Of a stretch of 64,000 nt of DNA, positions 1-40,475 are shown in pieces. This stretch comes from an uncultured Chloroflexia bacterium (lineage in GTDB: Bacteria > Chloroflexota > Limnocylindria > Limnocylindrales > CSP1-4): the NCBI GenBank assembly GCA_963782715.1, contig CAWAKU010000008.1, positions 279,526 to 343,525 of the forward strand, read 5' to 3'. A program made the translations under genes and the position numbers. How positions within the stretch are numbered: the stretch's first letter is position 1; every line of letters starts with the position of its first letter. The notes under the pieces were generated by a model. That model was given only the letters and a program-made list of their open reading frames with translations, was not told where the DNA came from and searched no databases.

Positions 1-1
1 G

Positions 2-595
2 CTCGACTGGGAGGACGTGCGTCTCGATCGCCTCTTCATCCAGGTCGGCGGCGGCGCCCTGGCGTCGGCCGTCATCGAGGGCTTCGCCGAAGCGCGCACG
101 CTCGGGCTGGCGGTCCGCGAGACGAGCATCCACCCCGTCCAGGCAGCGACGGTGGCACCTCTTGCCCGGGCCTATGAGCGGCTCGCCCATCGACTCGATA
201 TGGACGCGCCCACCGATGAGGACTTCGCCTGGGCTGCACGGCACCGCTCGGCCTTCATGTGGCCGTGGGAGACGGAGCCGCACAGCGTGGCCGGCGGGAT
301 CCTCGACGACGAGACGTACGACTGGCTGGCGATCGTCCGCGGGACCATCACCAGCGGCGGCGCGCCCGTGGTCGTCGACGAGCCGACCCTCGTCGAGGCG
401 AACGATCTCGCCGGCTCGGCGACCGGCATCGACGTCGACCCGACCGGCAGTGCCGGCCTGGCCGGCCTTCTCCAGCTCCGACGTCACGGACTCGTCTCCC
501 CGAACGAGACCGTCGCCGTCCTGTTCACCGGCATCCGACGCGACATCGCCCCGGATCCCGCCATCCCGCACGACATCACCGGAGGATCACGATGA
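2..595 (+). CDS. PLP-dependent fold-type II enzyme (threonine synthase / diaminopropionate ammonia-lyase-like), C-terminal part; 5' end lies outside the window
   Basis: Frame-2 ORF open from the window edge. The C-terminal motifs GIDVDPTGSAGLAGLL and ETVAVLFTG match the Trp-synthase-beta superfamily C-terminus. Family call is from motif memory, not a search. Confidence 0.55.
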   Translation, partial: LDWEDVRLDRLFIQVGGGALASAVIEGFAEARTLGLAVRETSIHPVQAATVAPLARAYERLAHRLDMDAPTDEDFAWAARHRSAFMWPWETEPHSVAGGILDDETYDWLAIVRGTITSGGAPVVVDEPTLVEANDLAGSATGIDVDPTGSAGLAGLLQLRRHGLVSPNETVAVLFTGIRRDIAPDPAIPHDITGGSR

Positions 596-1545
596 GGAGT
601 TTCCTGGGCCGCGACATCCTGTCCCTGAAGGACTTCGGACGCGACGATTTCTTCCGCGTCTTCCAGGTCGCAGACGACCTCCGGCCCTTCGCGCGCGACC
701 GGCGCAACACCGACCTGCTCAAGGACAAGACGCTGCTGACGGCGTTCTACCAGCCGAGCACGCGAACCCGCCTGTCGACGGAAGCGGCGATGCATCGGCT
801 CGGCGGTCACGTCCTCGGCTTCTCGGACGCGAAGATGACCCGGGCGGGCGACTTCTACCAGGAGTCGATCAAGGACACCTTCCGGATGCTCGAGTCGTAC
901 GGCGACGTCATCGCCATCCGGCATTTCCAGGAAGGCGCGCCGGCCGAGGCGGCCAAGTGGTCGTCCGTGCCGATCATCAACTGCGGTGACGGCTGGGGCG
1001 AGCATCCCACCCAGGTCCTGACCGACCTGTACACGATCCTGCTGGAGCGCGGCACGCTCGACGGGCTCAGCTACCTGCTCGTCGGCGACATGCGCATGCG
1101 AACGATGCATTCGCTGCTGTACGCGCTGTCCCAGTTCGATGCCGAGGCGATCGTCGTCAGCCCGCCGGACATGGCGCTCCAGCCCGAGTTCAAGGCCGAG
1201 CTCGACGCTCGGAACGTCGCCTATCGCGAGGCGGCCACGGTCAGCGAGGCCATCGGCGAGGCCGACATCATCTACATGGAGCCGGTCGTCCAGGCCGACT
1301 ACACCCAGTCGCGCGTCGAGCGGTCCGGCGAGACCGGCCTGACCCCGGAGGCCTACCAGGTCACCCGGGAGCTCCTGCGCACGAGCGCGAAGCGGAGCTC
1401 GATCATCCTCCACTCGCTGCCGCGGATGGACGAGCTGCTGCCCGACGTCGACGAGACGCGCCACCAGCGCTACTGGGCTGAGGCGTTCAACGGCGTCGCC
1501 CTCCGGATGGCGCTCCTGTCGCTCGTCCTCGGCGCGGCCGAGTAA
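592..1545 (+). CDS. aspartate carbamoyltransferase-like carbamoyltransferase (PyrB-like paralogue)
   Basis: ATG at 592 overlaps the upstream stop. Motifs STRTR, HPTQ and HSLP (variant of HPLP) are present. The C-terminus HSLPRMDEL...YWAEAFNGVALRMALL matches ATCase HPLPRVDEI...YFQQA.NG...RMALL. Confidence 0.8.
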   Translation: MRSFLGRDILSLKDFGRDDFFRVFQVADDLRPFARDRRNTDLLKDKTLLTAFYQPSTRTRLSTEAAMHRLGGHVLGFSDAKMTRAGDFYQESIKDTFRMLESYGDVIAIRHFQEGAPAEAAKWSSVPIINCGDGWGEHPTQVLTDLYTILLERGTLDGLSYLLVGDMRMRTMHSLLYALSQFDAEAIVVSPPDMALQPEFKAELDARNVAYREAATVSEAIGEADIIYMEPVVQADYTQSRVERSGETGLTPEAYQVTRELLRTSAKRSSIILHSLPRMDELLPDVDETRHQRYWAEAFNGVALRMALLSLVLGAAE

Positions 1546-1553
1546 GGGCGGCC

Positions 1554-2531
1554 ATGCAGACGAACCTTCGCGGTCGCGACCTGATCAGCCTCCAGGAGTG
1601 GACGCGCGAAGAGGTCGACACCGTCCTCGACGTCGCCACGTACCTCAAGATGCAGCGCGCCCTCGGCCAGCCGACCCCGCTGCTGCGCGACAAGGTCCTG
1701 GCGATGCTGTTCTTCTTCTCGAGCACGCGCACACGCGCCTCGTTCGAGGCCGGGATGGCCCAGCTCGGCGGCCACGCCCAGTTCATCGAATCGCGGACGA
1801 CCCAGATCGCCCACGGCGACACCGCCCGCGAGATCGGCGAGATCCTCGGTCGCTACAACGACGGGATCGCCATCCGGAACGTGGACTGGGGCGTCGGCAA
1901 CCAGTACATCCGCGAGGTCGCCGAGGCGAGCCGTGTGCCGGTCCTCAACATGCAGTGTGATCTCTACCACCCGCACCAGGTCCTCGCCGACCTGCTGACG
2001 ATCAAGGAGAAGTTCGGCGATCCGCGCGGCCGGACCATCACCATCTCCTGGGCATACGCCGCGAGCTACCAGAAGCCGATCAGCGTGCCCCAGGACCTCC
2101 TGCTCCTCGCCACCCGGTACGGCATGAACGTCCGGCTGGTCCACCCGCCGGAATTCAGGCTGATGGACGAGGTCGTCGCCCAGGCGACCGACAACGCCCG
2201 CCAGTCGCGCGGTTCGCTCGAGTTCATGGACGACATGGACGCGGGTGTCCGAGATTCGGACGTCGTCTACGCCAAGAGCTGGGGGCCGCTGCTCGTCGCC
2301 AAGGACGACGCCGACGGCGCGGCGATCTCGGCTCGCTACAGCGACTGGATCACCGACGAACGCCGGATGGACCTGGCCGGTCCGGATTCGATCTACATGC
2401 ACCCGCTCCCGGCCGACCGCAACGTCGAGGTCGCCGACGCGGTCATCGACGGTCCGCACTCGGTCGTCTACGACGAGGCGGAGAACCGACTCCACGTCCA
2501 GAAGGCCGTCATGGCCCTCACGATGGCCTGA
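1554..2531 (+). CDS. ygeW: YgeW-type (knotted) carbamoyltransferase of unknown substrate
   Basis: Motifs SSTRTR, HPHQ and HPLP. Long stretches resemble E. coli YgeW from memory (TQIAHGDTAREIG, NMQCDLYHPHQVLADL, WAYAASYQKPISVPQ, DVVYAKSWGPL, IYMHPLPADR). Confidence 0.8.
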   Translation: MQTNLRGRDLISLQEWTREEVDTVLDVATYLKMQRALGQPTPLLRDKVLAMLFFFSSTRTRASFEAGMAQLGGHAQFIESRTTQIAHGDTAREIGEILGRYNDGIAIRNVDWGVGNQYIREVAEASRVPVLNMQCDLYHPHQVLADLLTIKEKFGDPRGRTITISWAYAASYQKPISVPQDLLLLATRYGMNVRLVHPPEFRLMDEVVAQATDNARQSRGSLEFMDDMDAGVRDSDVVYAKSWGPLLVAKDDADGAAISARYSDWITDERRMDLAGPDSIYMHPLPADRNVEVADAVIDGPHSVVYDEAENRLHVQKAVMALTMA

Positions 2532-2566
2532 CCCCGAGGCCCCGACGGCCCGAAGGAGCACGAACG

Positions 2567-3511
2567 ATGGACAAGACCCTGGTCGTCGCGATCGGCGGCA
2601 ATTCGCTCATCAAGGACGCGAAGCATCAATCCGTCCCGGACCAGATCGCGGCGCTGGCCGAGACGAGCGTCCATATCGCCTCGGCGATCCGAGATGGCTG
2701 GCACGTGGCGATCGGCCACGGCAACGGCCCGCAGGTCGGATTCATCCTGCGCCGGTCCGAGCTGGCCGCCCACGAGCTGCACGAGGTGCCGCTGGACGTG
2801 TGCGATGCCGACAGCCAGGGGGCCATCGGATACGAGCTGCAGCAGACGCTCGGCAACGATTTCCGACGGATGGGCTTCGACCGACGGGCGGTCACGCTCG
2901 TGACACAGGTCGAGGTCGCCCGCGACGACCCGGCTTTCCAGAACCCGACCAAGCCCATCGGCACGTTCATGGACGAGGAGCGTGCTGCGGAGCGTCGCGA
3001 CAAGGACGGCTGGACCGTGGTCGAGGATGCCGGTCGCGGCTGGCGCCGCGTCGTGCCCTCCCCGCGCCCGATCCGGATCGTCGAGGAGGACGCGGTCCAG
3101 GCACTGCTCCGCGAGGGGTTCGTGGTCATCACCGTCGGTGGCGGCGGCGTCCCGGTCGTCGCCGACGCCTCGGGCTGCCTGCATGGCGTTGCGGCGGTCA
3201 TCGACAAGGACTACGCCTCGTCGCTGCTGGCCACCGCCGTCGGGGCGGACGTCTTCGCGATCACGACATCAGTCGAACGAGTCGCGCTCGATTGGGGCAA
3301 GCCGAGCCAGACCTGGATCGATCACCTGACCGTCGCTGAAGCGCGCGGCTACCTGGCCGAAGGCACCCATTTCATGCCGGGCAGCATGGCTCCCAAGATC
3401 CAGGCTTGCCTGGAATTCCTCGAACGCGGTGGCGGCGAGGCGCTGATCACGGCACCGGCCGATCTGGAGCTCGCCCTCAAGGGCAAGGCGGGGACCCGGA
3501 TCACCCTCTGA
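2567..3511 (+). CDS. arcC: carbamate kinase
   Basis: Begins MDKTLVVAIGGNSL and carries the GHGNGPQVG motif. The 314-aa length is typical for carbamate kinase. Confidence 0.85.
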   Translation: MDKTLVVAIGGNSLIKDAKHQSVPDQIAALAETSVHIASAIRDGWHVAIGHGNGPQVGFILRRSELAAHELHEVPLDVCDADSQGAIGYELQQTLGNDFRRMGFDRRAVTLVTQVEVARDDPAFQNPTKPIGTFMDEERAAERRDKDGWTVVEDAGRGWRRVVPSPRPIRIVEEDAVQALLREGFVVITVGGGGVPVVADASGCLHGVAAVIDKDYASSLLATAVGADVFAITTSVERVALDWGKPSQTWIDHLTVAEARGYLAEGTHFMPGSMAPKIQACLEFLERGGGEALITAPADLELALKGKAGTRITL

Positions 3512-3527
3512 CCCCGCGCGGCGTCAC

Positions 3528-3552
3528 TGCCGCGATCGGTGACAGGCCGTTG
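3528..3552. terminator. inverted repeat GGTGACAggccgtTGTCACC between convergent genes; candidate bidirectional terminator
   Basis: A 7-bp perfect inverted repeat with a 6-nt spacer, immediately after the carbamate kinase stop and before the stop of the minus-strand gene. There is no clear T-tract, which is common in high-GC genomes. Confidence 0.35.
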
Positions 3553-3567
3553 TCACCCCGTCATCGG

Positions 3568-4317
3568 TCATCCGGCCGGGTCGAGGATGGAGGTCTGCTC
3601 GATGGCCTCCATGTGCGCCGCGTCGAGCGCCACGAGCAGGTCGTGGACGTGGCGCACCTCGTCCGGCGACGGTTCGGTGCCGACGAGCCGGTCGAGGGCG
3701 TCGAGCCATGTCGCGAATGCGACCCACGCCGCCTGCCAGGTCCCGCCGCGAGCGGCTTCCCGGCGCCCTTCGTGGGCGAGCTCGCGGATCGCCGCCTGTC
3801 TGGTGCCCTCATCGCCGCTGTCGGTGATCTGTCGGACGATCCCATTGGCCGCCACGAGCGACTCCTCGAAACGGGTCCACGACAGGCGGGCATCGAACCG
3901 CTCGCCCAGCAGCCGACGAGGCAGACGCGCGATCGACCGATCGCGGTTCGGAACGCACACGACGACCGAGAAGTAGACACAGGCGACGAGGTAGGTCGCG
4001 AAGGCGATCGAGGTCGGCACGTCAGACCACGTCGCGACGACCTGCGCGACCGCCGTGAGGATCGTCAGGGGCACGACGAGGAGCACGATGACGCGCCACG
4101 GATAGCGTTCCGCGATCAGGTACAGCGTCAGTCCAGATGGGAGGACGGTCCAGATGAGCGGGTGGACCCACACGTTCATCGCGACGGCATAGGCGAGCCA
4201 GGCGACGAAGAGCAGGAGCCCGACACCGGTCGGCCAGTTGAGCGGGTCCAGCCGGGAAAGGCGGGCGGGTCGGGGTTGATCGCTCACCTGAGACATGGTG
4301 ACCCTGGTGGCGGACAC
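3568..4317 (-). CDS. hypothetical integral membrane protein with cytoplasmic C-terminal domain
   Basis: 249-aa ORF. The N-terminal half has about 4 hydrophobic helices; the C-terminal half is soluble and Arg/Glu-rich. No recognisable family. Confidence 0.5.
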   Translation of the reverse strand: MSATRVTMSQVSDQPRPARLSRLDPLNWPTGVGLLLFVAWLAYAVAMNVWVHPLIWTVLPSGLTLYLIAERYPWRVIVLLVVPLTILTAVAQVVATWSDVPTSIAFATYLVACVYFSVVVCVPNRDRSIARLPRRLLGERFDARLSWTRFEESLVAANGIVRQITDSGDEGTRQAAIRELAHEGRREAARGGTWQAAWVAFATWLDALDRLVGTEPSPDEVRHVHDLLVALDAAHMEAIEQTSILDPAG

Positions 4318-4383
4318 GTCAAGTCAGGTGGTCGCGGCATCGCCGACTCTCGGTTTGCCGAAGCGGTTCCGGGACCTCCCAGA

Positions 4384-4755
4384 ATGGTGGTCAGGAGGGA
4401 CGTCTTGGAACTGCTTCTGTCTTCCGCTGGCATCACGAACACGAGCATCCGCGACACGCTGGTCGACCTCCTGGGCAAGCCCATCGCAGAATCCAGTGCC
4501 CTGTGCATCCCCACCGCGTCGTATGCCAACGTCGGCGGCGCCGCCCTGGCATGGCGGTTCATCAGCGGACAGGAACCGCGGACGCCCATGTGCGAATTGG
4601 GATGGAAGTCCCTTGGCGTGCTGGAGCTCACCGCGCTGCCCAGCATCGAGGCGGACGGCTGGATCCCCATGGTCCAGGAGACCGACGTCCTTCTCGTGAA
4701 TGGCGGCGACCCCATGTATCTGTGCCACTGGAAACTGTTCCCCGCAGCGGGCTGA
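4384..4755 (+). pseudogene. peptidase S51 (dipeptidase E, PepE)-like, 3'-truncated remnant
   Basis: The N-terminal 120 aa align in architecture with PepE (ELLLSS...ALCIPTASYA ... LLVNGGDPMYL, cf. GGGNTF). The ORF stops roughly 100 aa short of a full S51 peptidase and no RBS is evident. Confidence 0.35.
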
Positions 4756-5619: not shown

Positions 5620-6876
5620 TCAATAGGTCGGATCCGTGCCACTGCGGGAGTACACGTGACTGGTGATGACGTCTACGACGTCCTTGTCGGAGCACTCGCC
5701 CGATCGGTCGACGCACTCGGTAAGGACGAGCGTGAGCCGGTCGCCGACGATGGTCCAGCGAAAGTTCGTGCGGACGCCCCCGCGATTGGTCATCGTCAGC
5801 TTGTCGCCGTCAACCGTCATGACGCCGCCGTCCCCCTCGGGAATGCCTTGGATCAGCCACAGCTCCCCGTCGAGGACGAAGCCCTGCCACCACTGGTCGC
5901 GGTCGAAGCCGAGCCGTAGGGCCACGTCTGCCCCCGACTTTCCGGCCTCCGCGGCGACATCCACCATCATCTTGCGAAGCGTCTCGGGACTGTCGTCCGT
6001 GACCGGGTAGTCCCAGGTTCCACGGAACGCCTCGAGGGCCGCGATGTCCTGGTCCGGGGTGAGCACCGGCGCGATCGCCGTAGGTCGGCTTGCGTCCCGC
6101 AGCTGCTCGATCCCATCGTCCGTCAACGCCGCCTGGTACACCGTTGCGGCGTCGATTGCCCCCGGCCAGAAGTCAGACGGGCCACCACGCGCCATGGAGC
6201 CACCGACCATCATCGCGCCGCGTGCCTGCCACGGCGCGTCGAAGGACGTCTCGGCCGCGCGCTTGCCATCGACGTAGAGACGGATCTGCCCAGCGGGCTG
6301 ATCGAACACGCCGGCGACATGGACCCAGGCGGCCGGATCGATTGCCGGACCGGTTGCTCGCGCACGGACCGTGTGCCCGGGGTCGTTTGTGTCGAGGTCC
6401 TTCATCGAGAAGGCCCAGTCTCCCTCGCCCAGACCGAGATAGAACGCGGAGGCTGTCTCGCCGACCTGACTGAGGACCGTCCCGAACGGCGACTTCTCGC
6501 CGACGGTCACCCAGGCCGCGACGGTGAAGCTGGCGGTGGTGTCGAGAGGGCCCGGCCCCGCCGTCGTTCCGTATCCCGTGACGCCGTCGAGCACGACCGC
6601 TCCGTGGTCGAACTCGTGCGTGCCGACGAACGTCAGTGGGTCGCCGGGTGACCCGTCGCCGTTGTTGTCAAGCTGCCATGCTGCCAGCGGCGTGGGCTCG
6701 ACGCTCGCTGCTGGTGTCGACATCGCCGAGACGGTCGGCGTGGGCTCGACGCTCGCGGAGGGCACCGGCGTCGTCGCCGATGCGGACGGCGTGGTGCCCG
6801 CGGTGCAGGCGGCGAGCAGGAGCGCGGCCGCGATTGCGGTCAGGTTCGAGGCGCGCGGGAACAAGGCACGTCGCAT
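5620..6876 (-). CDS. secreted lipoprotein with LamG/concanavalin-A-like lectin domain
   Basis: Start MRRALFPRASNLTAIAAALLLAACTAG with lipobox LAAC; RBS ggagac upstream. A Thr/Pro/Ser-rich linker is followed by a LamG-like region (FTVAAWV, IRLYVDG). Confidence 0.7.
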   Translation of the reverse strand: MRRALFPRASNLTAIAAALLLAACTAGTTPSASATTPVPSASVEPTPTVSAMSTPAASVEPTPLAAWQLDNNGDGSPGDPLTFVGTHEFDHGAVVLDGVTGYGTTAGPGPLDTTASFTVAAWVTVGEKSPFGTVLSQVGETASAFYLGLGEGDWAFSMKDLDTNDPGHTVRARATGPAIDPAAWVHVAGVFDQPAGQIRLYVDGKRAAETSFDAPWQARGAMMVGGSMARGGPSDFWPGAIDAATVYQAALTDDGIEQLRDASRPTAIAPVLTPDQDIAALEAFRGTWDYPVTDDSPETLRKMMVDVAAEAGKSGADVALRLGFDRDQWWQGFVLDGELWLIQGIPEGDGGVMTVDGDKLTMTNRGGVRTNFRWTIVGDRLTLVLTECVDRSGECSDKDVVDVITSHVYSRSGTDPTY

Positions 6877-6899
6877 CGGAGTCTCCTTGCGCGTTGGGT

Positions 6900-8207
6900 T
6901 CAGGGAGCGAGCCGCTGCCAGCTCCAGTACGCCTGGTCGGTCGACACGTCGTACGACTTGGGCACGACATGCGCGAGGACGGTCGGCTCGGCGGTCGGGT
7001 CGCGGGCATGCAGCGCCAGAAGCTCGCAGTCGGTGGCGGAGATGCAGCGGAGCGCGGTGATCTCCGTGCCGTCCGGCGACCAGGCGAGGCTGTCGGCGGT
7101 GGCGCTGAGGGGTGCCAGGACCGTCTCGGTACGGGTGGCGAGGTCGAGCACGACGACCTGCCACTGCCGGCCGCCCGTCGATCGCCAGTACGCCAGCCGT
7201 CCGCCGTCCGGTGACCACGCCGGCTGGGCCTCGTCCTTCTCGGTGCCGGCGATCACCTTCTCGTCCACGCGATCGGTCGCGAGGAGGAGGATGTCGCGAT
7301 CGAGTCGGCCCGAGTCGCCGTAGTGCACGGCGATCCGCTTGCCGTCGGGCGACCAGCGCGGCAGCTGCAGGAAGCCATTGTCGGCGTTGCTCGGCCGGTC
7401 GCTGAGCCGGACGAGGCCGCTGCCATCGGGCGCCGAGACGTAGAGGAAGCTCTCCGGGCGTCGCGTCGGCTCGCCGAGAAAGGCGATGCGATCACCCGAG
7501 GGCGACCAGGCCGGGTATTCGACCGCGAACAGCGACGGGGGCAGAAGCTCGGTGCGGCCGCCGGTATCGGCGTCCACGATCCAGATCTTCGCCGCTGTGT
7601 CTGCTCCGCTCGCGTCGACGATCGAGACGGCGATCCGCCGCGAGTCGGGGTTCCAGGCCGGAGCTTCCTCGCCCATCACGATACCGGCAGCCGAGTCGGT
7701 GGTGACAAGCTCACGGGCGCCGGAGCCGTCCACGTTCGCGACCATGAGTGACGTCTTCGTGCCCTGCTCGCGCAGGAAGGCGACCCGTTGGCCGTCGAGC
7801 GAGACGCTGGGCCGCGTGTCGGTGCCGAGCCCGGTCGACAGCGGGCGCTGGTCGTTCCCGTCCGGCTCGAGCGCGAGGATGTGGCTGCCGTCGTCGTAGA
7901 TGACGAGGCCGTTCGCCGCGATCCCAAAGGGGGCCGGGATCCGGGGCCGCGAGCCAACGATGCCTTGGACGACCAGTGCCGCAATCAGCAGCACGAGGAG
8001 GACGACCCAGGCCAGGCGCACCGTCGCGGCGGCGTGCAACTCGGGCAGGTCGAGCAGGATCCAGTTGCGCGGGAACGTCCAGCCGGGCCGCTGGCGCTCG
8101 GTGCGCGCCCGAGCCCGCACCTCGGGCAGGTAGTCCGGCACACTCGCCGGCGCGGCGTCGGCCAGGAGATCGGCGAGACGGCGGTCGAAGGGATCTCGGG
8201 CGTTCAC
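6900..8207 (-). CDS. membrane anti-sigma factor with periplasmic TolB/PD40-like beta-propeller
   Basis: Its start overlaps the stop of the upstream ECF sigma gene by 4 nt. It has one TM helix (VRLAWVVLLVLLIAALVV). Repeated W/YSPDG motifs are present (PAWNPDSRRIA, PAWSPSGDRIA, PRWSPDGKRIA, PAWSPDGGRLA, LAWSPDGTEI). Confidence 0.75.
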   Translation of the reverse strand: MNARDPFDRRLADLLADAAPASVPDYLPEVRARARTERQRPGWTFPRNWILLDLPELHAAATVRLAWVVLLVLLIAALVVQGIVGSRPRIPAPFGIAANGLVIYDDGSHILALEPDGNDQRPLSTGLGTDTRPSVSLDGQRVAFLREQGTKTSLMVANVDGSGARELVTTDSAAGIVMGEEAPAWNPDSRRIAVSIVDASGADTAAKIWIVDADTGGRTELLPPSLFAVEYPAWSPSGDRIAFLGEPTRRPESFLYVSAPDGSGLVRLSDRPSNADNGFLQLPRWSPDGKRIAVHYGDSGRLDRDILLLATDRVDEKVIAGTEKDEAQPAWSPDGGRLAYWRSTGGRQWQVVVLDLATRTETVLAPLSATADSLAWSPDGTEITALRCISATDCELLALHARDPTAEPTVLAHVVPKSYDVSTDQAYWSWQRLAP

Positions 8208-8764
8208 GCCTTGCCCTCCACGAGCTGGGTCCCAGATTCCTGCCGTGCGACCCCGAACGCTTCACGCAGCTCGTGTCGCGCGCGGTGCAGGCGCGATTTC
8301 GCGGTCCCGAGCGGGACGCCCAGAGCATGCGCCGCCTCGGGCAGCGGCATGTCGAGGTAGTAGAAGAGGACGACGATCGTGCGCAGGTCGGGATCCAACC
8401 CGCGCAGCGCCCGCTCGAGGACGTCGCGATCCGCCGTTCGCGACTGCGCGTCGGGCACGTCCAGGTCATGAATGTCGGAAATCTCGACCTCGATCGGGCG
8501 CGACCGGCGGCGACGCAGCTCGTCATAGCAGGCGTGCACAAGGAGCCGATGGAGCCACGCGTCGAACCGGTCGGGATCGCGGAGGGACCGGAGATCACGC
8601 CAGGCCTTGGCGAACGCCTCTTGGACAGCGTCCTTGGCCTGCTCGGGGTCTCGGAGGATCAGCCTGGCAGCGCCGTCGAGCCGGCCGATCGCGGCGAGCG
8701 CGAGCGCGTCGAAGGCGTCCAGATCGCCTCGACGTGCCCGCTCCACGAGTTCCCGCTGCGCCAC
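8204..8764 (-). CDS. ECF (group IV) sigma-70 family RNA polymerase sigma factor
   Basis: 186 aa with sigma-2 (DAVQEAFAKAWR) and sigma-4 (GTAKSRLHRARHELR) regions. Confidence 0.85.
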   Translation of the reverse strand: MAQRELVERARRGDLDAFDALALAAIGRLDGAARLILRDPEQAKDAVQEAFAKAWRDLRSLRDPDRFDAWLHRLLVHACYDELRRRRSRPIEVEISDIHDLDVPDAQSRTADRDVLERALRGLDPDLRTIVVLFYYLDMPLPEAAHALGVPLGTAKSRLHRARHELREAFGVARQESGTQLVEGKA

Positions 8765-9191: not shown

Positions 9192-11540
9192 TCAGGGCAA
9201 CGGGAACCCGGCCTCGGCGAGGGCCTGTGGGCTGACCAGCGGAGACTTCTCGCCGAACGTGCGGCGGAGCAGAAAGTACTCGGGCAGCGGACGGTCGTCC
9301 GTGACGAGCGGACCTGAGCCCGCGAACGACGCAACCTGCGCACCCTTCAGCCAGGACAGTCTCGGAATGAGAGCCGCCCAGCCATCCGCGGTCTTCGCAG
9401 GAGAGTCGTACGCCCCGGAGATGTCCTCGAGAATGCCCGGCCGCGCGAGCACCTCGCGCACGCTCCGGTCTTCCAACACCATCGGCTGGTCGGAACCGAG
9501 CAGGAAGAACCCGTAGTTGCCCGGGCTGGCGAGCACCAGAACTTCGGGGAAGACGTCGGAGAAGGTCCGGACGTGCGCCTGAAGCTCATCGATCGTCATG
9601 CCGTACGAGACCCACTGCATCATGATCCCGCCGGGGGTCAGGCGCTCGTGGCCGGCCTGGTAGTACTCGAGCGACGAGATGACTGTGATACCCGACGCCT
9701 CGACCGGCGGCGGCGGGTCGGTCACGATGATGTCGTACTTCTTGTCGGTTAGCTCCATGTGGTTCCGGCCGTCGGCGACGATGACGTGGCCGTTCGGGTT
9801 CGCGCGGATCGCGGCGGCGTCCGGGAAGAAGTAGCCGAACATCGACGGCACCGAGGGCACCAACTCCACCGCATCCGTCGTCAGGCCCGCGATGACGCTC
9901 GAGCGGAAGCCCGAGCCCATCCCGAAACAGACGATCAGTGCGCTTTTCGATTCCGGTCGGGCGATGAGTGGCAGGGTCACCATCAGCCTCGCGTCGACGG
10001 TGAGGGCTGTCATCGATGCACCAGTGACCCACAGCTGCTTGAACCCGTTGACGCTGCCGGCCTGGACGGATGCGATCTCGTCCTCTCGACTCGCGAACAG
10101 CTCCCCATCCCGATTCGCGATGTTCGCAACGCTCGGGTCGACGAGGATCCCGCTGGTCGCCAAGGCCACGACGAGAACCACCGCGGTCACCGCTCCCACG
10201 CCATACGTGGTCACTCGCCCGACGGCAGATCTGATCGGCGCCGCGTATGCGAGGCAGAGACCCAGAGCGATGTTGATGAGGGCGATGACACCGATCGCGT
10301 CGGGCGCTCCGATGGCCGGGATGACGAAGAACGGCACCACGAACGTGCCGACGATGGCGCCGAGTGTGTTCGCGGCAAGCAGCAGGCCGGCGCTCGTCGC
10401 GACCTTGCCGCTGCGGCCCGCCACGAGGGCAGACGAAGCCGGGAAGCTGAGGCCCATCACGATGGTCGCGGGCAGCACGACGAGTAGGGCCTGCGAGAAC
10501 AGGACGCCGATGATGCCGTCGATCCGACCTTGCTGGACGGTGTATTGGAAGGGTTTCGAGAGGACGAAAACGACTCCGGCGAGGGCCAGGACGCCGATCA
10601 CGATGTTGGTCCGTGCCAACAGAGCGACCGGCTGCCGGATCCAGCGCCGGAGCAGGGTGAAGAGCACCGCACCGATCGCGATCCCGGTGAGGAATACCAC
10701 GAGGATCAGCGTGAAGACGTATGCGTAGTTGCCGCTCCCCGACGCGAGGAGCCGCGTCCAGAGGACCTGGTACGCGAGCGAGGTCAGGCCGGAGACGAAC
10801 GCCACGACCAGCGCGATCCGGGGTCGCGGGTCGGTATCTGCGGTCCCATCAGGGACCGTCGACGCCTCGGGGGCGGTGGCCGTCGAGACAGCCTGGGCGA
10901 CTGCATCGGACTCGGACGCTCGACGCCGTCGGTCGAGGACGACCGCGGTCAGGCCCGCGAGGGCAGAGCAGCCCGCGGCAACCACCAATGTCTCCGACAG
11001 GCCGAGGACCTCGATCAGCACCAGGCCGGCCGCCGCCGCGCCGATGATCGCCCCGATCGTGTTCGCGGCGTACAGGCGGCCGAAGGCCGAGCTCAGGTGG
11101 GTCGCGTCCCGGGAGAGATAGCGGGTGAGCGTCGGGAGGGTCGCGCCCATGAGGATCGTCGCCGGTGCGAGCGCCAGGAGCGCGAGCCCGAACCGAACGA
11201 GGCCGAGGACCTGCGGCGACGCCTCGAGAGATGTGAACGCGCCCTGGTAGACCGAACCGATGAGCCGGAACGTCACCGGCGTCAGGAGGACGACGACCAC
11301 GAGGATCGCCTCCAGGACGCCGTACAGCAGCAGCGGTCGCGGGACCCTGTCCGCGAGCCGTCCCCCACCCCACGAGCCGATCGCCATGCCGCCGAAGAAC
11401 CCGGTCAGGATCACCGAGACGGCCTGCGTGGTGTTGCCGAAGACCAGGACGAGTTGCCGCGACCAGACGACCTCGTACATCAGGCCGGCAGCGCCGGAGA
11501 GGATGAAGATGGCCAGGATCGGCCAGCGCCGAGACGTCAC
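9192..11540 (-). CDS. fused MFS-type membrane domain / spermidine synthase (aminopropyltransferase)-like protein
   Basis: About 12 TM helices in the N-terminal 500 aa. The C-terminal domain has PABS-like motifs (VADGRNHMELTDKKYDIIVTDPPPP, GGIMMQWV). The start is uncertain: GTG at 11540 or ATG at 11840. Confidence 0.7.
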   Translation of the reverse strand: MTSRRWPILAIFILSGAAGLMYEVVWSRQLVLVFGNTTQAVSVILTGFFGGMAIGSWGGGRLADRVPRPLLLYGVLEAILVVVVLLTPVTFRLIGSVYQGAFTSLEASPQVLGLVRFGLALLALAPATILMGATLPTLTRYLSRDATHLSSAFGRLYAANTIGAIIGAAAAGLVLIEVLGLSETLVVAAGCSALAGLTAVVLDRRRRASESDAVAQAVSTATAPEASTVPDGTADTDPRPRIALVVAFVSGLTSLAYQVLWTRLLASGSGNYAYVFTLILVVFLTGIAIGAVLFTLLRRWIRQPVALLARTNIVIGVLALAGVVFVLSKPFQYTVQQGRIDGIIGVLFSQALLVVLPATIVMGLSFPASSALVAGRSGKVATSAGLLLAANTLGAIVGTFVVPFFVIPAIGAPDAIGVIALINIALGLCLAYAAPIRSAVGRVTTYGVGAVTAVVLVVALATSGILVDPSVANIANRDGELFASREDEIASVQAGSVNGFKQLWVTGASMTALTVDARLMVTLPLIARPESKSALIVCFGMGSGFRSSVIAGLTTDAVELVPSVPSMFGYFFPDAAAIRANPNGHVIVADGRNHMELTDKKYDIIVTDPPPPVEASGITVISSLEYYQAGHERLTPGGIMMQWVSYGMTIDELQAHVRTFSDVFPEVLVLASPGNYGFFLLGSDQPMVLEDRSVREVLARPGILEDISGAYDSPAKTADGWAALIPRLSWLKGAQVASFAGSGPLVTDDRPLPEYFLLRRTFGEKSPLVSPQALAEAGFPLP

Positions 11541-11890
11541 GGGAGGCGGCCGGTCGAGCGCGATAGCGGCAAGGTCACTGTCCGGCCGAATCCACGACAG
11601 CAGTCTGCTCGATGGCGAGCATGCGCGCACGGCGATGTCAAGGTCACGCTGGCTGGAATCGGCATGTGAAGAAGATCCGCTCCGTGTCGTTCGGACATTG
11701 GTCGGCGTCGCCCCACCTCGCAAGTCCGGTCGGGCTCGGATGCGCCCATCCAGTCTGCGGCGTCGGACTGGTTCGTTCGGTGCGCGGGGCCTCCACGAAC
11801 ACAGGGCGCGAACGAAATCGTCGACGTTACCCCTTGACAAGGTAGCCGCCGGGTCTCAGGCCACACACTCCGACGTTGAACAGGCGCCTC

Positions 11891-13789: not shown

Positions 13790-13866
13790 AGCGCCCCCGG
13801 ACGGACTCGAACCGCCGACGCAGGCCTTAGGACGGCCTCGCTCTGTCCACTGAGCTACGGGGGCGC
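13790..13866 (-). tRNA. tRNA-Arg (anticodon CCT)
   Basis: The reverse complement folds as a cloverleaf: acceptor GCGCCCC/GGGGCGC, anticodon stem AGGCC/GGCCT, loop GTCCTAA (anticodon CCT), T-loop TTCGAGT. CCA is not encoded. Confidence 0.85.
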
Positions 13867-15925: not shown

Positions 15926-17185
15926 TTACGGCACCGGCTGGAGGCCCAGCCAGGTGGTGAACGTGCCGAACGGCAGGATCTTGACGGGCACGCCACCCGC
16001 CGCGTCCACGATCCAGGGCGAGACATCGACGGTGTCGCCCTGCGCAGTCGATCCGCCCGAGGCTTTCGCGAGGACGGTACGCGTGAAGGTGATCCGGCTC
16101 CCATCGGGGAGATAACGTGGATGGCTCGTGGCATCGGTTCCCGCCTCGATCAGAGCCTCCTCGCCGGTCCCGTCCGCATGGACGCGGGTCAGGCCCGTGC
16201 CGTCGGTGACGACGATCCACTGTCCGTCGGGCGACCAGTCGAGGTCGGTCAGCGTGCCCCCCGGTCGGCTCAGGACCACCGTCTCGGCCCGGGACGCGAG
16301 ATCGAGGACGACGACCTCTGACGATGCCACTGGGCCGCCACGGACCGTCTGATGCGTCCGCACGAAGGCGATCCGATCGGTCGTCGGCGACCAGCGCGGC
16401 GAGCGCTCCTCGATGAGCCCGCAGGTGCTCGACATCAGGGTCGTCGTCGCCCCCGGCGACGCCCCGACCAGGACACCGCCGATGTCCGCGACCCGCAGAC
16501 CGCACGTCGTCGGGATGGCCACGGTCTCGCCATCGACGACGACATCCTCGGTCGGCCCATCGGCGAAGAAGAAGACGACCCGACTGCCATCGCGCGACAC
16601 CGCCTGGAATTCCTGGTCGACGCATGGAGCGAGGCACGGCAGGAGCCGCGTACTACGACCACTCGCGATGTCGTGCGACCAGATGTCCCGGCCAGCGGTA
16701 GATGTGGCCGACGCGAGGAACGTGAACGAGCGCCCGGAGACGTCCCATTCCGGTTGCTCGTGGCGGGGGTCCGTGACATCGGTCGCGACGATGTGGTCGT
16801 CCGACCCATCGAGCCCGACGAGATGGATCTCGACGACCGAGTCGTCGATGTTCGAGATCTGGTACGACAGGAGGCCCGGAGTGCCGGCGAGGGGGTACGG
16901 CACGACGCTCGGGGTCGGCGACGGACTCGGAGTCGGCAGGACGACCACGGATGGACGCGAGCCGGCCACGCCGATCAGGCCGATGGCGGCGGTCGCCACG
17001 ATCGCCCCGACGAGGACGAGCCGTCCGGTCGGGCGAGACCATCGACGGCGCGCCCGCGGCCGGCCCCGGACTGCCTCGCGGGCAACGATCGCGGTCGGGC
17101 GCGGGTCGATCACGCCGCGCGTGTAGCGCTCAAGGTCATCGGCGAGGCGTCGCTCGAGGGCGGTCATCGTGCTGTCGCTATCCAT
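15926..17185 (-). CDS. membrane anti-sigma factor with TolB/PD40-like beta-propeller (second module)
   Basis: Start MDSDSTMTALERRL lies 2 nt after the stop of sigma gene 17178..17816. TM helix LVLVGAIVATAAIGLIGV. Cys motifs (LPCLAPC, TCGL x2) are shared with lipoprotein 17862..19013. Confidence 0.7.
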   Translation of the reverse strand: MDSDSTMTALERRLADDLERYTRGVIDPRPTAIVAREAVRGRPRARRRWSRPTGRLVLVGAIVATAAIGLIGVAGSRPSVVVLPTPSPSPTPSVVPYPLAGTPGLLSYQISNIDDSVVEIHLVGLDGSDDHIVATDVTDPRHEQPEWDVSGRSFTFLASATSTAGRDIWSHDIASGRSTRLLPCLAPCVDQEFQAVSRDGSRVVFFFADGPTEDVVVDGETVAIPTTCGLRVADIGGVLVGASPGATTTLMSSTCGLIEERSPRWSPTTDRIAFVRTHQTVRGGPVASSEVVVLDLASRAETVVLSRPGGTLTDLDWSPDGQWIVVTDGTGLTRVHADGTGEEALIEAGTDATSHPRYLPDGSRITFTRTVLAKASGGSTAQGDTVDVSPWIVDAAGGVPVKILPFGTFTTWLGLQPVP

Positions 17186-17816
17186 CGCCGAGGTCCTCGC
17201 GAAGTCGTGCCATGAGTCGAGACAGGCGAGCCCGGACCGAGGATGCATTCCGGCCGGTCGTCTCGGCGATCTCGTCGGATCCCAGACCGCCGAGGTAGCG
17301 CATGACGATGAGGGCTCGATCATCCGGGTGCAGCTTCAGAAGCGCCGCGATGAGGTCCGACCGGTCACCGCTCGGCTGGGGCACCGCGGCCGCATCGGCG
17401 TCGCGCTCCTCGTCGAGCGGTGCGACCTCGCGAACCCACCGCCGGCGACGCGAGCGGGCGGCCTGGCGAGCCTCGTTGCTGACGACGGCGATGAGCCATG
17501 GGCGAAGCTTGGTCGGCTCACGCAGCTTGTCGAGCCCTTGCCAGACCTTGACCCAGGCGGCCTGGGTCGCATCGCGGGCGAGATCGGCATCGCCACACAC
17601 GCCGTACGCGATCCGGACCAGCTCCGCATGATGCGCCGCCACGATGCCGGCGAACGCATCCTCGTCGCCCGAGCGGGCGCGTTCCACGAGGTCGGCACCG
17701 GACGACGCCCTCACGCTCAGGTTCATCTCCACGTATCGATAGATGCCGATCACGCCCGATCTGCTGCATGGTGACGAATCTTCGTCGGTCTGCAGCGCCC
17801 CACCGACAACCGGCAT
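17178..17816 (-). CDS. ECF sigma-70 family sigma factor (second module)
   Basis: sigma-2 (ATQAAWVKVWQ) and sigma-4 (SSVRARLSRLMARL) regions. Strong RBS aaggagg before the first ATG. Confidence 0.85.
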   Translation of the reverse strand: MPVVGGALQTDEDSSPCSRSGVIGIYRYVEMNLSVRASSGADLVERARSGDEDAFAGIVAAHHAELVRIAYGVCGDADLARDATQAAWVKVWQGLDKLREPTKLRPWLIAVVSNEARQAARSRRRRWVREVAPLDEERDADAAAVPQPSGDRSDLIAALLKLHPDDRALIVMRYLGGLGSDEIAETTGRNASSVRARLSRLMARLREDLGDG

Positions 17817-17861: not shown

Positions 17862-19013
17862 ATGCGACCCTTGGCGAACCCGATGCGCGGTGTCGCGCTA
17901 GCCGGCGCTCTGCTGCTGGTCGCCGGCTGTGGCGGACAAGGCGCCAGCGGCCCGGCCCCGATTTCGAACCCGACGCCGTCGACGGCCATCGCGGCGCCCG
18001 TCTCGAGTGCCACACCCGTCCCGAACCGGCCATCGGTCGCCCCGCCGACCCCGACCGCCTCGCCGTCGCTGCCGCTCGCCGGGCTCGACGGCTGGATCGC
18101 GTACAGCATCGGCGACAGTCGTGCGGCCAAGGTCCGCCTCATTCGACCGGACGGCAGCGACAACCACGCGATCGCCGAGGACGCAGGCCCGCGTTCGATC
18201 CACCCGGAGTGGCTGCCCGACGGGCGAAGCCTCCTGTTCGAGCAAGTGGTCGGCCGCGATGACGTCAAGTCGATCTGGCGATGGGACATGGCGAAGGGGT
18301 CGTCCACCGAGATCGTGCCGTGTGCGGACCCGTGCGTCGCCCGCCAGGCGCCGGCGCCGTCGGCCGACGGGTCGAGGATCGCGTACGAGACCTACGACGG
18401 GCCGATCGATGATGTCACCGTGGGCACGGCGGTCGCCCAGATCCCGGCGCATTGCGGGCTCCAGGCGATGACCCTCGCGACGCACGAGACCAGCACCATC
18501 GCGACCGGCACATGCGGCCTCGTCGAATGGCATGGACCGCGCTGGTCGCCGACGGGCGACCTCGCCTACTTCCGGACCCATCAGGCCACGCGTGGCGGTC
18601 CGGTCGAGCTCGCCGAGCTCGTCGTCCATGACATGGCGTCGGGCAAGGACCGGGTGATCAACGAATGGCCGGCGTGGGACGAGGCGAACCAGCTCGAATG
18701 GTCACCCGACGGCACCTGGATCGTGTTCTCGACCCAGGGTCGGATCGATCGGATCCATCCGGATGGGAGCGGTGGTCACACCCTGGTCGAGGCCGGCGAC
18801 AAGGCGTTGAGTGCCAACCCGTACCACCCGCGATTCCTCCCGGATGGGAGCTCTCTTACCTTCAACTGGAGCATCGCGCCCCGCGGCGTCATCACCTCCG
18901 TCCGGTTCTTCGCGATGCCTGCCGCAGGTGGGGCCCCGACCGAGGTCCTGCCCGAGGGTGAGAACGGCACCGACGAGCACTACAACTGGGGCTCGCTCCA
19001 GCCCACACCGTGA
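17862..19013 (+). CDS. TolB/PD40-like beta-propeller lipoprotein, paralogue of the adjacent anti-sigma sensor domain
   Basis: Lipobox LLLVAGCGG, RBS ggagga. Long stretches align to the periplasmic domain of the 15926..17185 protein, for example FRTHQATRGGPVELAELVVHDMASG vs VRTHQTVRGGPVASSEVVVLDLASR. Confidence 0.75.
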   Translation: MRPLANPMRGVALAGALLLVAGCGGQGASGPAPISNPTPSTAIAAPVSSATPVPNRPSVAPPTPTASPSLPLAGLDGWIAYSIGDSRAAKVRLIRPDGSDNHAIAEDAGPRSIHPEWLPDGRSLLFEQVVGRDDVKSIWRWDMAKGSSTEIVPCADPCVARQAPAPSADGSRIAYETYDGPIDDVTVGTAVAQIPAHCGLQAMTLATHETSTIATGTCGLVEWHGPRWSPTGDLAYFRTHQATRGGPVELAELVVHDMASGKDRVINEWPAWDEANQLEWSPDGTWIVFSTQGRIDRIHPDGSGGHTLVEAGDKALSANPYHPRFLPDGSSLTFNWSIAPRGVITSVRFFAMPAAGGAPTEVLPEGENGTDEHYNWGSLQPTP

Positions 19014-19022
19014 TGCGCTCGA

Positions 19023-19889
19023 CTACCGAGCTTCGTAGCGGAATCGGTCCCGATCCCGCACGAGCCGACCGATCGGGTGCCGCGCCTCGTGCGACAGGAC
19101 GACGATCCAGTCCTCGTCGGCGGCCTGCGCGAACAGCTCCGCCTTGCGGTCGACCGAATCCAGCGGGAAGTCGTCGAAGGCGGTCACCCAGCGCGGGTTC
19201 GCCGCCCACGGCCGCATCATCAGGTCACCGAAGAACGCCAGCGTCCGGGCGCCGTCACCGGTGCCCCGGACGATGACGGCCTGGTGCCCGGTCGAATGGC
19301 CACCGGTCGGCACGACGCTGACGCCGGGCAGGATCTCGCGCTCGCCATCGACCCAGCCCTGCTTGCCCCAGGCCTCGACGAGCCGCAGCTCCGGCTGGAC
19401 ATACGACGCGACGAGGCGCGGGTTGTCGCCGAGGGCGACCTCCCACTCGGCCCGCTGCGCGACGATCGTCGCGTGCGGGAATGCCCGCTCGCCGTCCGCT
19501 CGGAGGAGCCCGCCGGCGTGGTCGAAGTGGAGATGGCTCATCGCCACGACATTGATCGACTCGGGCAGGAAGCCGGCCGCCTCGAGGGCAGACACGATCC
19601 ACGGCCCCTCGTACGACCGCATCGACCTGGTCTTCTCATCGACCCGGTCGCCGATTCCCGTCTCGACCAGGACGCGGCCGGACTTGGTTTCGATCAGCAG
19701 GCAGTTGAGCGCCTGCAGGAGGCGCCGCTTGTCGTCCACCTCGTCGGCGACCAGGTCACCCCACAGGACCCACGGGACGGGCCCGAACAACGTCCCGGCA
19801 TCGGACCGGAAGGTCCCGGCCTGGACCAACGCCACGCGCGTCCCACCACCGAGGTCCTGCGCCCAGTCAACCGCGTCGTTCATCGCCAT
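19023..19889 (-). CDS. MBL-fold metallo-hydrolase
   Basis: HxHxDH motif MSHLHFDHAGG plus downstream His/Asp ligands. 288 aa. Confidence 0.8.
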   Translation of the reverse strand: MAMNDAVDWAQDLGGGTRVALVQAGTFRSDAGTLFGPVPWVLWGDLVADEVDDKRRLLQALNCLLIETKSGRVLVETGIGDRVDEKTRSMRSYEGPWIVSALEAAGFLPESINVVAMSHLHFDHAGGLLRADGERAFPHATIVAQRAEWEVALGDNPRLVASYVQPELRLVEAWGKQGWVDGEREILPGVSVVPTGGHSTGHQAVIVRGTGDGARTLAFFGDLMMRPWAANPRWVTAFDDFPLDSVDRKAELFAQAADEDWIVVLSHEARHPIGRLVRDRDRFRYEAR

Positions 19890-23382: not shown

Positions 23383-23409
23383 GAGCTCGCTATCCCTCTC
23401 CCTCTCGGG

Positions 23410-24595: not shown

Positions 24596-24626
24596 GTAGC
24601 AGCGCGACCATGCCGGACTTCGGAGA

Positions 24627-24998
24627 TCAGCCCTGGCGGAGACCCAGCGTATTCCCGTCCGGGTCGCGGAACCAGGCGCCAAGGGCCGGGCCGATGGGCG
24701 CGATGTGGTTCGTCGTGATGAGCGGGCCCTCGGTGTAGTCGAGGAAGGCGACACCCTTCGCCTCGAGGTCGGCGACCGTCGCGGCGATGTCGGTCACCTC
24801 GAAATGGGCGACGGTGTGCGACGTCTCGGTTCCGGGGCGACGGAAGATCGACAGCTCGCTCGACTCGCCGCAGCGGAGCCGGACGGATGCCGGGTTCTCC
24901 CACAGCACGGTCAGACCGAGCGTCTCGCCATAGAACGCCTTCGAGCGCTCGAGGTCACTGACCGGGATCGTTGCCACCACCAGCGTCGCGCCGAGCAT
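24627..24998 (-). CDS. VOC (glyoxalase/bleomycin-resistance fold) family protein
   Basis: 123 aa with paired beta-alpha-beta-beta-beta modules (YGETLGLTV, WFRDPDGNTLGL). Confidence 0.8.
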   Translation of the reverse strand: MLGATLVVATIPVSDLERSKAFYGETLGLTVLWENPASVRLRCGESSELSIFRRPGTETSHTVAHFEVTDIAATVADLEAKGVAFLDYTEGPLITTNHIAPIGPALGAWFRDPDGNTLGLRQG

Positions 24999-31588: not shown

Positions 31589-31592
31589 CGGG

Positions 31593-32715: not shown

Positions 32716-32764
32716 CGGTCCTCCGGGGTCGGGAGTCGGGTCGGCGATCAGACGCTGGTGACCA

Positions 32765-40425: not shown

Positions 40426-40475
40426 GCGCTGCGCCTCCGGCGTTTCGGGGAGTGTCGTGGTCGCGAGTCTAGCGC

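Follow-up and report, generated by a model that had tools for sequence, protein, structure and literature searches.

The 64,000-nucleotide stretch of contig CAWAKU010000008.1 analysed here (the window), from an uncultured Chloroflexia bacterium with a genomic G+C content of 69%, opens with a group of genes that raises a simple question: which carbamoyl compound is handled by two different transcarbamylases encoded in tandem beside a carbamate kinase? Positions 2-3511 hold four co-directional open reading frames (ORFs), which encode the end of a pyridoxal phosphate (PLP) enzyme, a protein resembling aspartate transcarbamylase (ATCase) and called pATC, a second transcarbamylase called TC2 and a carbamate kinase (CK). 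The original prediction read them as a catabolic, ATP-linked cluster and suggested a two-step or branched fermentation of carbamoyl compounds not yet assigned. Removal of carbamoyl groups in two steps is still the best reading, but the pathway as a whole appears to be a variant of a known one. We propose that the cluster encodes a variant of the reductive urate pathway, in which both ureido groups would be phosphorolysed with a yield of two ATP and a pair of PLP enzymes would replace YgeX, a reading that we hold to be about evenly poised between right and wrong.

Two transcarbamylases and a carbamate kinase in one operon

The four predicted genes were all found on the forward strand, the PLP gene as a fragment of 198 amino acids, and they form one tightly packed operon. 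The fragment (2..595) covers the last 198 codons of a ThrC-like PLP fold-II gene, here called PALP-B, whose start lies outside the window. Its stop codon and the start codon of the pATC gene (592..1545, 317 aa) overlap in an ATGA, with a GGAGG motif 6 nt upstream of the pATC start. The TC2 gene (1554..2531, 325 aa) follows after a spacer of 8 nt and the CK gene (2567..3511, 314 aa) after another of 35 nt, with AAGGAG located 8 nt upstream of its ATG. The ATGA overlap and the short spacers indicate translational coupling and co-expression. The gene located after CK is convergent and unrelated to the operon, and a promoter and terminator scan of window positions 1-4500 found nothing. As anticipated, no genes of pyrimidine or arginine biosynthesis, pyrB and argF included, were found in the 64-kb window, whose remaining genes are housekeeping genes.

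The first complete gene product, pATC, carries both Pfam domains of the transcarbamylases, OTCace_N and OTCace. It scores 261 bits on the ATCase model TIGR00670 (cutoff 237) and 220 bits on NF002032, below the cutoff of 263. Its top solved relatives are archaeal and bacterial ATCases, the best match in the PDB being the Pyrococcus abyssi enzyme (241 bits). The carbamoyl-phosphate site is kept in the form of PSTRTR (the STRT motif), R110 (ATCase Arg105) and EHPTQ (the HPTQ motif), all of them invariant in 34 orthologues. Alignments also place R170 of pATC, kept and equally invariant, at the position of ATCase Arg167, the residue that binds the α-carboxylate of the substrate.

The part of the active site that recognizes the aspartate side chain is altered. 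In ATCase, Arg229-x-Gln231 (RxQ) bind the β-carboxylate of aspartate; pATC is devoid of both residues and carries P231-V-V233 instead (1282..1290, forward strand), according to alignments with the P. abyssi ATCase and with 92 representatives. The surrounding sequence YMEPVVQ is nearly invariant across the 34 orthologues. The 80s loop, which reads S-x-x-K-K (Ser80, Lys84) within SSxKKGE[ST] in true ATCases, is replaced by TRAGDFYQES with an insertion of two residues (T83-R-A-G-D87, 838..852, forward strand). The pattern TRAGD[FW]YQE[ST] is found in 34 of the 34 orthologues, and all 27 members of a diverse set of pseudo-ATCases have R84. The substitution of HSLP for the HPLP of true ATCases, pointed out in the original prediction, was located at residues 274-277 (H274-S-L-P277, 1411..1422, forward strand) and recurs in the 33 orthologues out of 33 that cover this region. 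Across several phyla the 34 orthologues show little or no change in these signature motifs, which denotes strong purifying selection on pATC. In a scan of 1.84 billion cluster representatives, a loop of the TRAGD type characterized a wide range of ATCase paralogues, within which the HSLP/PVVQ subfamily is tight, with identities of at least 65% and its next relatives at about 47%. In a rough neighbour-joining (NJ) tree, built with few references and without bootstrap and therefore suited to coarse placement only, the pATC family forms a monophyletic clade that is sister to the true ATCases and does not group with true PyrB. The AlphaFold2 model of pATC, computed from a shallow alignment, has a predicted local distance difference test score (pLDDT) of 61.

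Pseudo-ATCases were described as ATCase paralogues in which STRT and HPTQ are kept and HPLP and RxQ are changed (Barba et al. 2013, PMC4016543). Group 2 in that scheme has the motif H[ST]LP and was represented by Nocardioides sp. JS614, where the gene lies next to a ygeW homologue together with xdhABC and hyuA, so that this gene association had already been noted in 2013 (PMC4016543). By its sequence pATC is a member of group 2, since STRT and HPTQ are kept, H[ST]LP is present and RxQ is lost. The published replacement of RxQ in this group, GX[SC] (PMC4016543), was not reproduced, the present alignments giving PVV, and where one genome was known in 2013, orthologues now come from 35 species-representative genomes of several phyla. 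No function was assigned to group 2 in 2013 or in the later literature. The combination of a conserved carbamoyl-phosphate site and R170 with PVV and a remodelled 80s loop would suit an N-α-carbamoyl amino acid with a side chain other than a carboxylate; 3-amino-2-ureidopropionate and diureidopropionate fit as candidate substrates.

The second transcarbamylase had been called a clear homologue of YgeW, an opinion that was upheld in part. TC2 stays below the cutoff of every NCBIfam model, with 257 bits for N-acetylornithine transcarbamylase (AOTCase, cutoff 288), 255 bits for ornithine transcarbamylase (OTCase) and, for the two YgeW models NF005538 and TIGR03316, 195 and 180 bits against cutoffs of 453 and 500. 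BLASTP identities amount to 34% with Escherichia coli YgeW, 40% with Xanthomonas AOTCase and 38% with Pyrococcus furiosus OTCase. Moreover, TC2 is some 70 residues shorter than YgeW, which counts about 396 aa and has specific insertions. What supports the comparison is a loop, the HxLPAD motif and the gene context. The TC2 loop I164-SWAYAASYQKPISVPQ-D181 (2043..2096, forward strand) matches in length and pattern the E. coli YgeW loop MTWAYSPSYGKPLSVPQG: when the motifs of 28 TC2 homologues were tabulated beside those of YgeW, AOTCase and two OTCases, the TC2 version ISWAYAASYQKPISVPQD and that of YgeW proved equally long, shared the pattern WAYxxSYxKP[IL]SVPQ and were unlike those of AOTCase and the OTCases. 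The HxLPAD motif is common to both proteins as HPLPAD in TC2 and HCLPAD in YgeW, and intermediate sequences bridge the two, with identities of 40-42% to YgeW and 46-50% to TC2.

In the same rough tree the TC2 family groups with AOTCase and YgeW, apart from the OTCases. The AlphaFold2 model, likewise built on a shallow alignment, has a mean pLDDT of 68, with values below 50 in the loop regions expected to form the knot, and the top Foldseek matches of this medium-quality model are knotted AOTCases (TM-score 0.74), YgeW ranking outside the top 50. The resemblance to AOTCase (e.g. PDB 3KZC) extends to the best NCBIfam score, a lengthened loop that follows the central strand, and the motif YAKSWG, but TC2 differs by its sub-cutoff score, by its YgeW-like loop, by HPLP instead of HCLP and by the lack of arginine-biosynthesis genes nearby. 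An assignment as ordinary OTCase or AOTCase was rejected because no arginine genes lie near and the loop is of the YgeW type. The grouping with ordinary OTCases that would have contradicted the original prediction did not appear, but neither is TC2 a canonical YgeW: it is best classed as a short member of the YgeW/AOTCase branch, outside the YgeW family as delimited by curated models, and is the probable counterpart of YgeW, that is, a diureidopropionate carbamoyltransferase.

The identity of CK is secure on NF009007 (386 bits, cutoff 266) and borderline on TIGR00746 (357.1 bits, cutoff 358.25); domain PF00696 is present and the protein is 47% identical to E. coli YqeA. Since carbamate kinase converts carbamoyl phosphate and ADP into ATP, NH3 and CO2, this finding lends support to the catabolic, ATP-linked character first ascribed to the cluster.

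The conserved cluster in related genomes

The window begins inside the operon and the gene context was accordingly taken from relatives; an exact-match look-up with the TC2 protein of the window returned no contig, and homologues at 85-96% identity served for this purpose. Four contigs whose proteins are 85-96% identical to those of the window carry the same eight genes. PALP-A, PALP-B, pATC, TC2 and CK occupy one strand, and divergent from them lie the genes for a fused 2Fe-2S/molybdopterin xanthine dehydrogenase (XDH) homologue of about 900 aa, an amidohydrolase of about 450 aa and a protein with DHO_dh and Fer4 domains. The flanks differ on both sides, which defines the eight genes as a conserved unit, and by this comparison the four window genes are its 3' part. 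On TIGR03311 (cutoff 830) the XDH homologue reaches 947 bits. The amidohydrolase, at 428 bits, falls short of the SsnA cutoff of 444 and aligns with E. coli SsnA along the entire protein at 38-41% identity; the DHO_dh/Fer4 protein is PreA/PydA-like. An XdhD/XdhAC-type molybdoenzyme, a YgfK/UacX-type reductase and SsnA are features seen in related loci, outside the window.

PALP-A, PALP-B, pATC, TC2, CK, XDH and the SsnA-like gene are shared by nine loci at 78-96% identity (L001, L002, L004, L005, L007-L010 and L039). XDH and SsnA constitute a divergent operon in seven of the nine; five of these operons also contain the DHO_dh/Fer4 (UacX-like) gene, and the other two, in L008 and L009, a YgfK-like gene. 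L010 and L039 have XDH and SsnA downstream of CK in the same orientation, and a search for a reductase found none there. In L008 and L009 (positions 1-3000) the YgfK-like reductase, 35% identical to E. coli YgfK, takes the place of the UacX-like gene, so that compared with L001, L002, L004, L005 and L007 the reductase module is swapped in an otherwise identical cluster. Rfam models detected no purine or xanthine riboswitch close to the cluster, either in the window or in the seven loci scanned; the c-di-GMP-II riboswitch (66 bits) at 19789-19873 on the minus strand of L005 (Chloroflexi bacterium RBG_16_69_14) lies about 8 kb away and is unrelated to it.

These relatives also complete the picture of the PLP enzymes. 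The window fragment matches Pfam PALP (PF00291) with 49 bits, with weak ThrC and cysteate-synthase matches, and aligns with the C-terminal part of genes of 467-478 aa located directly upstream of pATC in L001, L002, L004 and L005. The full-length relatives of PALP-B (about 470 aa) are ThrC-like, with the PLP lysine in SGSHKGR and an N-terminal CxxC...CP zinc ribbon. PALP-A, encoded in the loci of the relatives (about 500 aa), is CysK-like, with its lysine in SHKV, a GSAGT loop and a C-terminal extension of about 100 aa. Their best family matches are weak (CysK 74 bits, ThrC 74 bits, respectively), they are very distant from solved enzymes (43-69 bits), and the diaminopropionate ammonia-lyase model did not match Limnocylindria-type PALP-A or PALP-B at E ≤ 1e-5. 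Both proteins look catalytically competent, and a role in diaminopropionate disposal is one that we infer from gene context.

On a wider scale, a scan of one genome per species retrieved pATC orthologues at 60-85% identity in 35 genomes. Their carriers belong to the Chloroflexota (Limnocylindria-like, Anaerolineae and Thermoflexus), to the Actinomycetota (Acidimicrobiia, Gaiellales, Nocardioides and Streptosporangiaceae) and to the Sysuimicrobiota, Spirochaetota, Phycisphaerae and Eisenbacteria. Within 10 kb of pATC in these 35 species-representative genomes, TC2 is encoded in 27 loci (directly downstream in 23), CK and PALP-A in 22 each, PALP-B in 19, an XDH-like protein in 18 and SsnA in 15. 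HyuA accompanies pATC in 10 loci of other lineages, at 37-43% identity, YgeY in 2 and a YgeX-like protein in 2, the last being weak matches of 23-27% identity to ThrC-like genes. Neither pyrC nor pyrI was found beside pATC in the window or in the 35 orthologous loci. Matches at 35-46% identity, mostly from archaea and Chloroflexota with a few other phyla, have no cluster partner, and many of them adjoin a weakly HyuA-like amidohydrolase gene, a putative pyrC; for these two reasons they look like true pyrB genes.

Two Nocardioides loci (L016 and L052) display the order pATC, TC2, ygfM-like gene, XDH, HyuA, and thereby reproduce what was described for group 2 in Nocardioides sp. JS614, namely the motifs, the neighbouring ygeW homologue and the presence of xdh and hyuA. 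A distinct arrangement occurs in L025 (7843-9225 and neighbours), a metagenome-assembled genome of Pelolinea sp., where an 8-oxoguanine deaminase homologue (688 bits, cutoff 532) and a GntR regulator precede pATC-TC2-CK, and genes for a ThrC-like protein of more canonical type and for homologues of PALP-A and HyuA follow downstream. No XDH or SsnA was found within 10 kb in this locus, a hint that the same end module is entered here by another route.

A possible variant of reductive urate degradation

The reductive urate (2,8-dioxopurine) pathway was worked out in E. coli and Clostridium and reconstituted in 2025 (Li et al., Life Metab 2025, PMC12507026; Liu et al. 2025, bioRxiv 10.1101/2025.04.24.650524). 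Urate is reduced to 2,8-dioxopurine by XdhD or XdhAC, this compound is dearomatized by YgfK or UacX, and SsnA then opens one ring to give ureidomethyl-hydantoin (UMH) (PMC12507026; 10.1101/2025.04.24.650524); the E. coli enzyme forms two products, UMH and 5-ureido-dihydrouracil (5UDU). HyuA opens the hydantoin to 2,3-diureidopropionate, YgeW phosphorolyses one of its ureido groups, YgeY hydrolyses the other and YgeX converts the remaining diaminopropionate into pyruvate (PMC12507026; 10.1101/2025.04.24.650524). The belief, repeated in the original prediction, that YgeW has no known substrate is thus outdated, the phosphorolysis of 2,3-diureidopropionate having been shown by both studies. YgeW and YqeA together form ATP (Liu et al., 10.1101/2025.04.24.650524), and weak product formation by YgeW in the direction of phosphorolysis was reported (Li et al., PMC12507026). 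As to the ureido group that YgeW removes, the two studies contradict each other, and a 2025 commentary, which also describes diureidopropionate as structurally reminiscent of allantoate, lists the point as an open question.

Applied to the present cluster, this scheme would run as follows. The XDH homologue, the PydA-like reductase (UacX-like or YgfK-like) and the SsnA-like enzyme would convert urate via 2,8-dioxopurine into a ring-opened ureido compound, and opening of the second ring would give 2,3-diureidopropionate. TC2 would remove one ureido group by phosphorolysis. pATC is predicted to phosphorolyse the second, most likely the 2-ureido (N-α-carbamoyl) group, in place of the hydrolase YgeY. 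CK would turn both carbamoyl phosphates into ATP, two per purine instead of one, and PALP-A and PALP-B would replace YgeX in the conversion of 2,3-diaminopropionate into pyruvate and ammonia. With somewhat less than even confidence, we put forward pATC as a previously undescribed ureido-aminopropionate (or diureidopropionate 2-ureido) carbamoyltransferase, which together with TC2 would double the substrate-level ATP yield, and the PALP pair as a new type of PLP enzyme for the disposal of diaminopropionate.

Several known systems bear on this proposal. The E. coli cluster ygeW-ygeX-ygeY-hyuA-yqeA / ygfK-ssnA-ygfM-xdhD shares with the present one the fused Fe-S/Mo XDH homologue, the YgfK/UacX-type reductase, SsnA, a YgeW-like transcarbamylase followed by carbamate kinase, and PLP fold-II enzymes at the end; it differs in that YgeY, YgeX and, in this lineage, HyuA are missing here, whereas an additional ATCase-like transcarbamylase and two divergent PLP enzymes are present. 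The pATC clusters almost never contain YgeY, and the E. coli-type cluster has YgeY without a second transcarbamylase, a complementarity that supports the assignment of pATC to the YgeY step. A precedent is offered by Rxyl_2847 of Rubrobacter xylanophilus, a group 1 pseudo-ATCase (ureidoglycine carbamoyltransferase) that phosphorolyses allantoate (diureidoacetate) to ureidoglycine and carbamoyl phosphate and adjoins a carbamate kinase. Both proteins are RxQ-less ATCase paralogues encoded beside a carbamate kinase in a purine-catabolic cluster, and the activity of Rxyl_2847 on a diureido acid one carbon shorter supports phosphorolysis by pATC. Its motifs, on the other hand, are HPLA and AIA/AIS/SIA against HSLP and PVV in pATC, and it serves the oxidative route through uricase and allantoinase. 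The arginine deiminase pathway, with its catabolic OTCase and carbamate kinase, likewise couples ureido phosphorolysis to substrate-level ATP formation, but it relies on one transcarbamylase acting on the one ureido group of citrulline, and no arc genes occur here.

A number of observations weigh against the proposed variant. The upstream half of the cluster lies outside the window and was reconstructed from relatives, the closest being L004 (TC2 96% identical). The hydantoin ring must open before diureidopropionate can form, which calls for a hydantoinase; nevertheless hyuA, like ygeY and ygeX, was not found in the 64-kb window, HyuA is also absent from the nine closest loci, and a search started from the HyuA of the L012 cluster returned no source-labelled Limnocylindria among the 120 matches listed. 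YgeY and pATC occur together in two genomes (L012 and L038), which indicates that pATC is not a strict substitute for YgeY and may do something else. Several Anaerolineae loci contain pATC-TC2-CK without XDH, most of them also without SsnA, so that this module can serve other entry routes, and PALP-A, PALP-B and pATC are sometimes found with no TC2 nearby (L017 and L037). By overall similarity TC2 stands no closer to YgeW than to AOTCase or OTCase. Owing to the disagreement between Li et al. and Liu et al., the attribution of the 2-ureido group to pATC rests on its likeness to ATCase, and we infer the substrates of pATC, TC2 and the PLP enzymes alike from sequence and gene context. The structure models, of low to medium confidence (pLDDT 61 and 68), add little.

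These difficulties nourish other explanations. One, unlikely in our eyes and yet deserving real attention, retains the pathway and moves pATC to a different step, either the exocyclic ureido group of UMH or 5UDU before ring opening, or a side branch formed by PALP-A, PALP-B and pATC with the YgeY step encoded elsewhere. The position of PALP-A and PALP-B directly upstream of pATC in about 16 loci speaks in its favour, as do the same L017 and L037, where the three genes stand without TC2 or CK nearby, the co-occurrence with YgeY, the missing HyuA of the closest loci and the dual product of E. coli SsnA. It is opposed by the invariant equivalent of Arg167, which points to a substrate with a free α-carboxylate such as the ring compounds do not possess, and by the fact that TC2 is the commonest neighbour of pATC (27/35). 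A less probable option, which we would not expect to hold, is that the cluster degrades another N-heterocycle or carbamoyl compound, with a different oxopurine (8-oxoguanine, for example), a ring of the pyrimidine type and N-carbamoyl amino acids derived from hydantoins as candidates. Identity to the E. coli enzymes is just 26-41% for the homologues of XDH, SsnA and the reductase, pATC-TC2-CK is coupled in Anaerolineae, with XDH missing, to a homologue of 8-oxoguanine deaminase, and other groups of pseudo-ATCases have neighbours concerned with allantoin or hydantoin (PMC4016543). Even so, a fused XDH, a PydA/YgfK-type reductase, SsnA, a YgeW-like protein and CK together make up the signature of the published 2,8-dioxopurine pathway, and two transcarbamylases suit a substrate that, like a purine, contains two urea units.

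It is also conceivable, though we attach very little probability to it, that pATC works in the synthetic direction and spends the carbamoyl phosphate that TC2 sets free on the carbamoylation of an amine, for salvage or to form a ureido metabolite, instead of feeding the kinase. Transcarbamylase thermodynamics favour carbamoylation, the phosphorolysis product of YgeW was weak in the hands of Li et al. (PMC12507026), and CysK-like and ThrC-like PLP enzymes are mostly synthases; against this stand the CK gene in the same operon, the conserved catabolic partners, the lack of biosynthetic neighbours among the genes found and the phosphorolytic operation of the one characterized pseudo-ATCase. That pATC is an ordinary biosynthetic PyrB, as public databases have it, appears hardly credible. 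The score on TIGR00670 (261 against 237), the names given to its homologues and the ATCases that head its PDB matches would agree with such a role, but Pro and Val in place of Arg229 and Gln231, HSLP for HPLP and the remodelled 80s loop are invariant or nearly so in 34 orthologues, the score on NF002032 is below cutoff, the clade is separate from PyrB in the rough tree, and the gene is never found beside pyrC or pyrI and always in a purine-catabolic context. Biosynthetic PyrB was consequently rejected on active-site and context grounds, in agreement with the original view that this ATCase-like gene is not a biosynthetic pyrB. The variant of the reductive urate pathway with two phosphorolytic steps thus remains the reading that we prefer.

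Neighbouring genes, annotation and biological meaning

The rest of the window contains several features foreign to the cluster. An amidohydrolase gene at 57183-58388 was considered as a hydantoinase and rejected as Xaa-Pro-dipeptidase-like. An acetyl-CoA-synthetase-like gene on the minus strand (55191-57186) appears split into two overlapping ORFs, one with ACAS_N and AMP-binding domains (55954-57186) and one with AMP-binding_C (55191-56165), which may reflect a frameshift, a pseudogene or an assembly error. Four PD40 (TolB-like β-propeller) proteins are encoded at 6900-8207, 15926-17323, 17862-19013 and 47127-48467. The first of these genes overlaps the stop codon of an upstream ORF (8204-8764) that resembles an extracytoplasmic function (ECF) sigma factor by eye, and a gene for a Laminin_G_3 protein (5620-6900) follows this first PD40 gene; the three may form a sigma-factor-linked envelope module. 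An 882-aa membrane protein (9192-11840, minus strand) has an MFS_1 N-terminal half and a C-terminal part that resembles, by eye, a spermidine-synthase-type methyltransferase. Genes for an acyl-CoA dehydrogenase and for electron transfer flavoprotein alpha and beta subunits lie near one for a 762-aa CCG/4Fe-4S protein of the HdrD/GlpC type (21614-24903 and 29471-31759, minus strand) and may constitute an electron-transfer module. MoaC is encoded at 32122-32820, and an aminobutyraldehyde-dehydrogenase-like protein (627 bits) at 38905-41307 on the minus strand, where the longest ORF carries an apparent N-terminal extension of about 300 aa and its start is probably over-called. The sole RNA genes found in the window are tRNA-Arg(CCT) at 13791-13864 and tRNA-Pro(GGG) at 49895-49971 (minus strand).

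In public databases, the homologues of the two transcarbamylases (P0001-P0240) are named aspartate carbamoyltransferase in the case of pATC, a name explained by its passing the TIGR00670 cutoff, and ornithine or N-acetylornithine carbamoyltransferase in the case of TC2. For the pATC family this looks like a systematic misannotation. Such names, borne by many metagenomic proteins, would mislead metabolic reconstructions, and surveys that apply high-identity cutoffs for YgeW, YgeY and YgeX would miss these clusters.

Reductive urate degradation has been known since 2025, in gut bacteria only. The present cluster would be an environmental variant of it, carried by Chloroflexota, Actinomycetota, Sysuimicrobiota, Spirochaetota, Planctomycetota and other phyla, in which different enzymes would take over the final hydrolytic and lyase steps. 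If pATC does phosphorolyse the second ureido group, a family whose function has been open since 2013 would receive one, in the form of a new transcarbamylase activity, and the energy yield of purine fermentation would change. The pairing of an ATCase-like enzyme, directed at the N-α-carbamoyl group, with a YgeW-like enzyme would then settle which ureido group YgeW-type enzymes attack.

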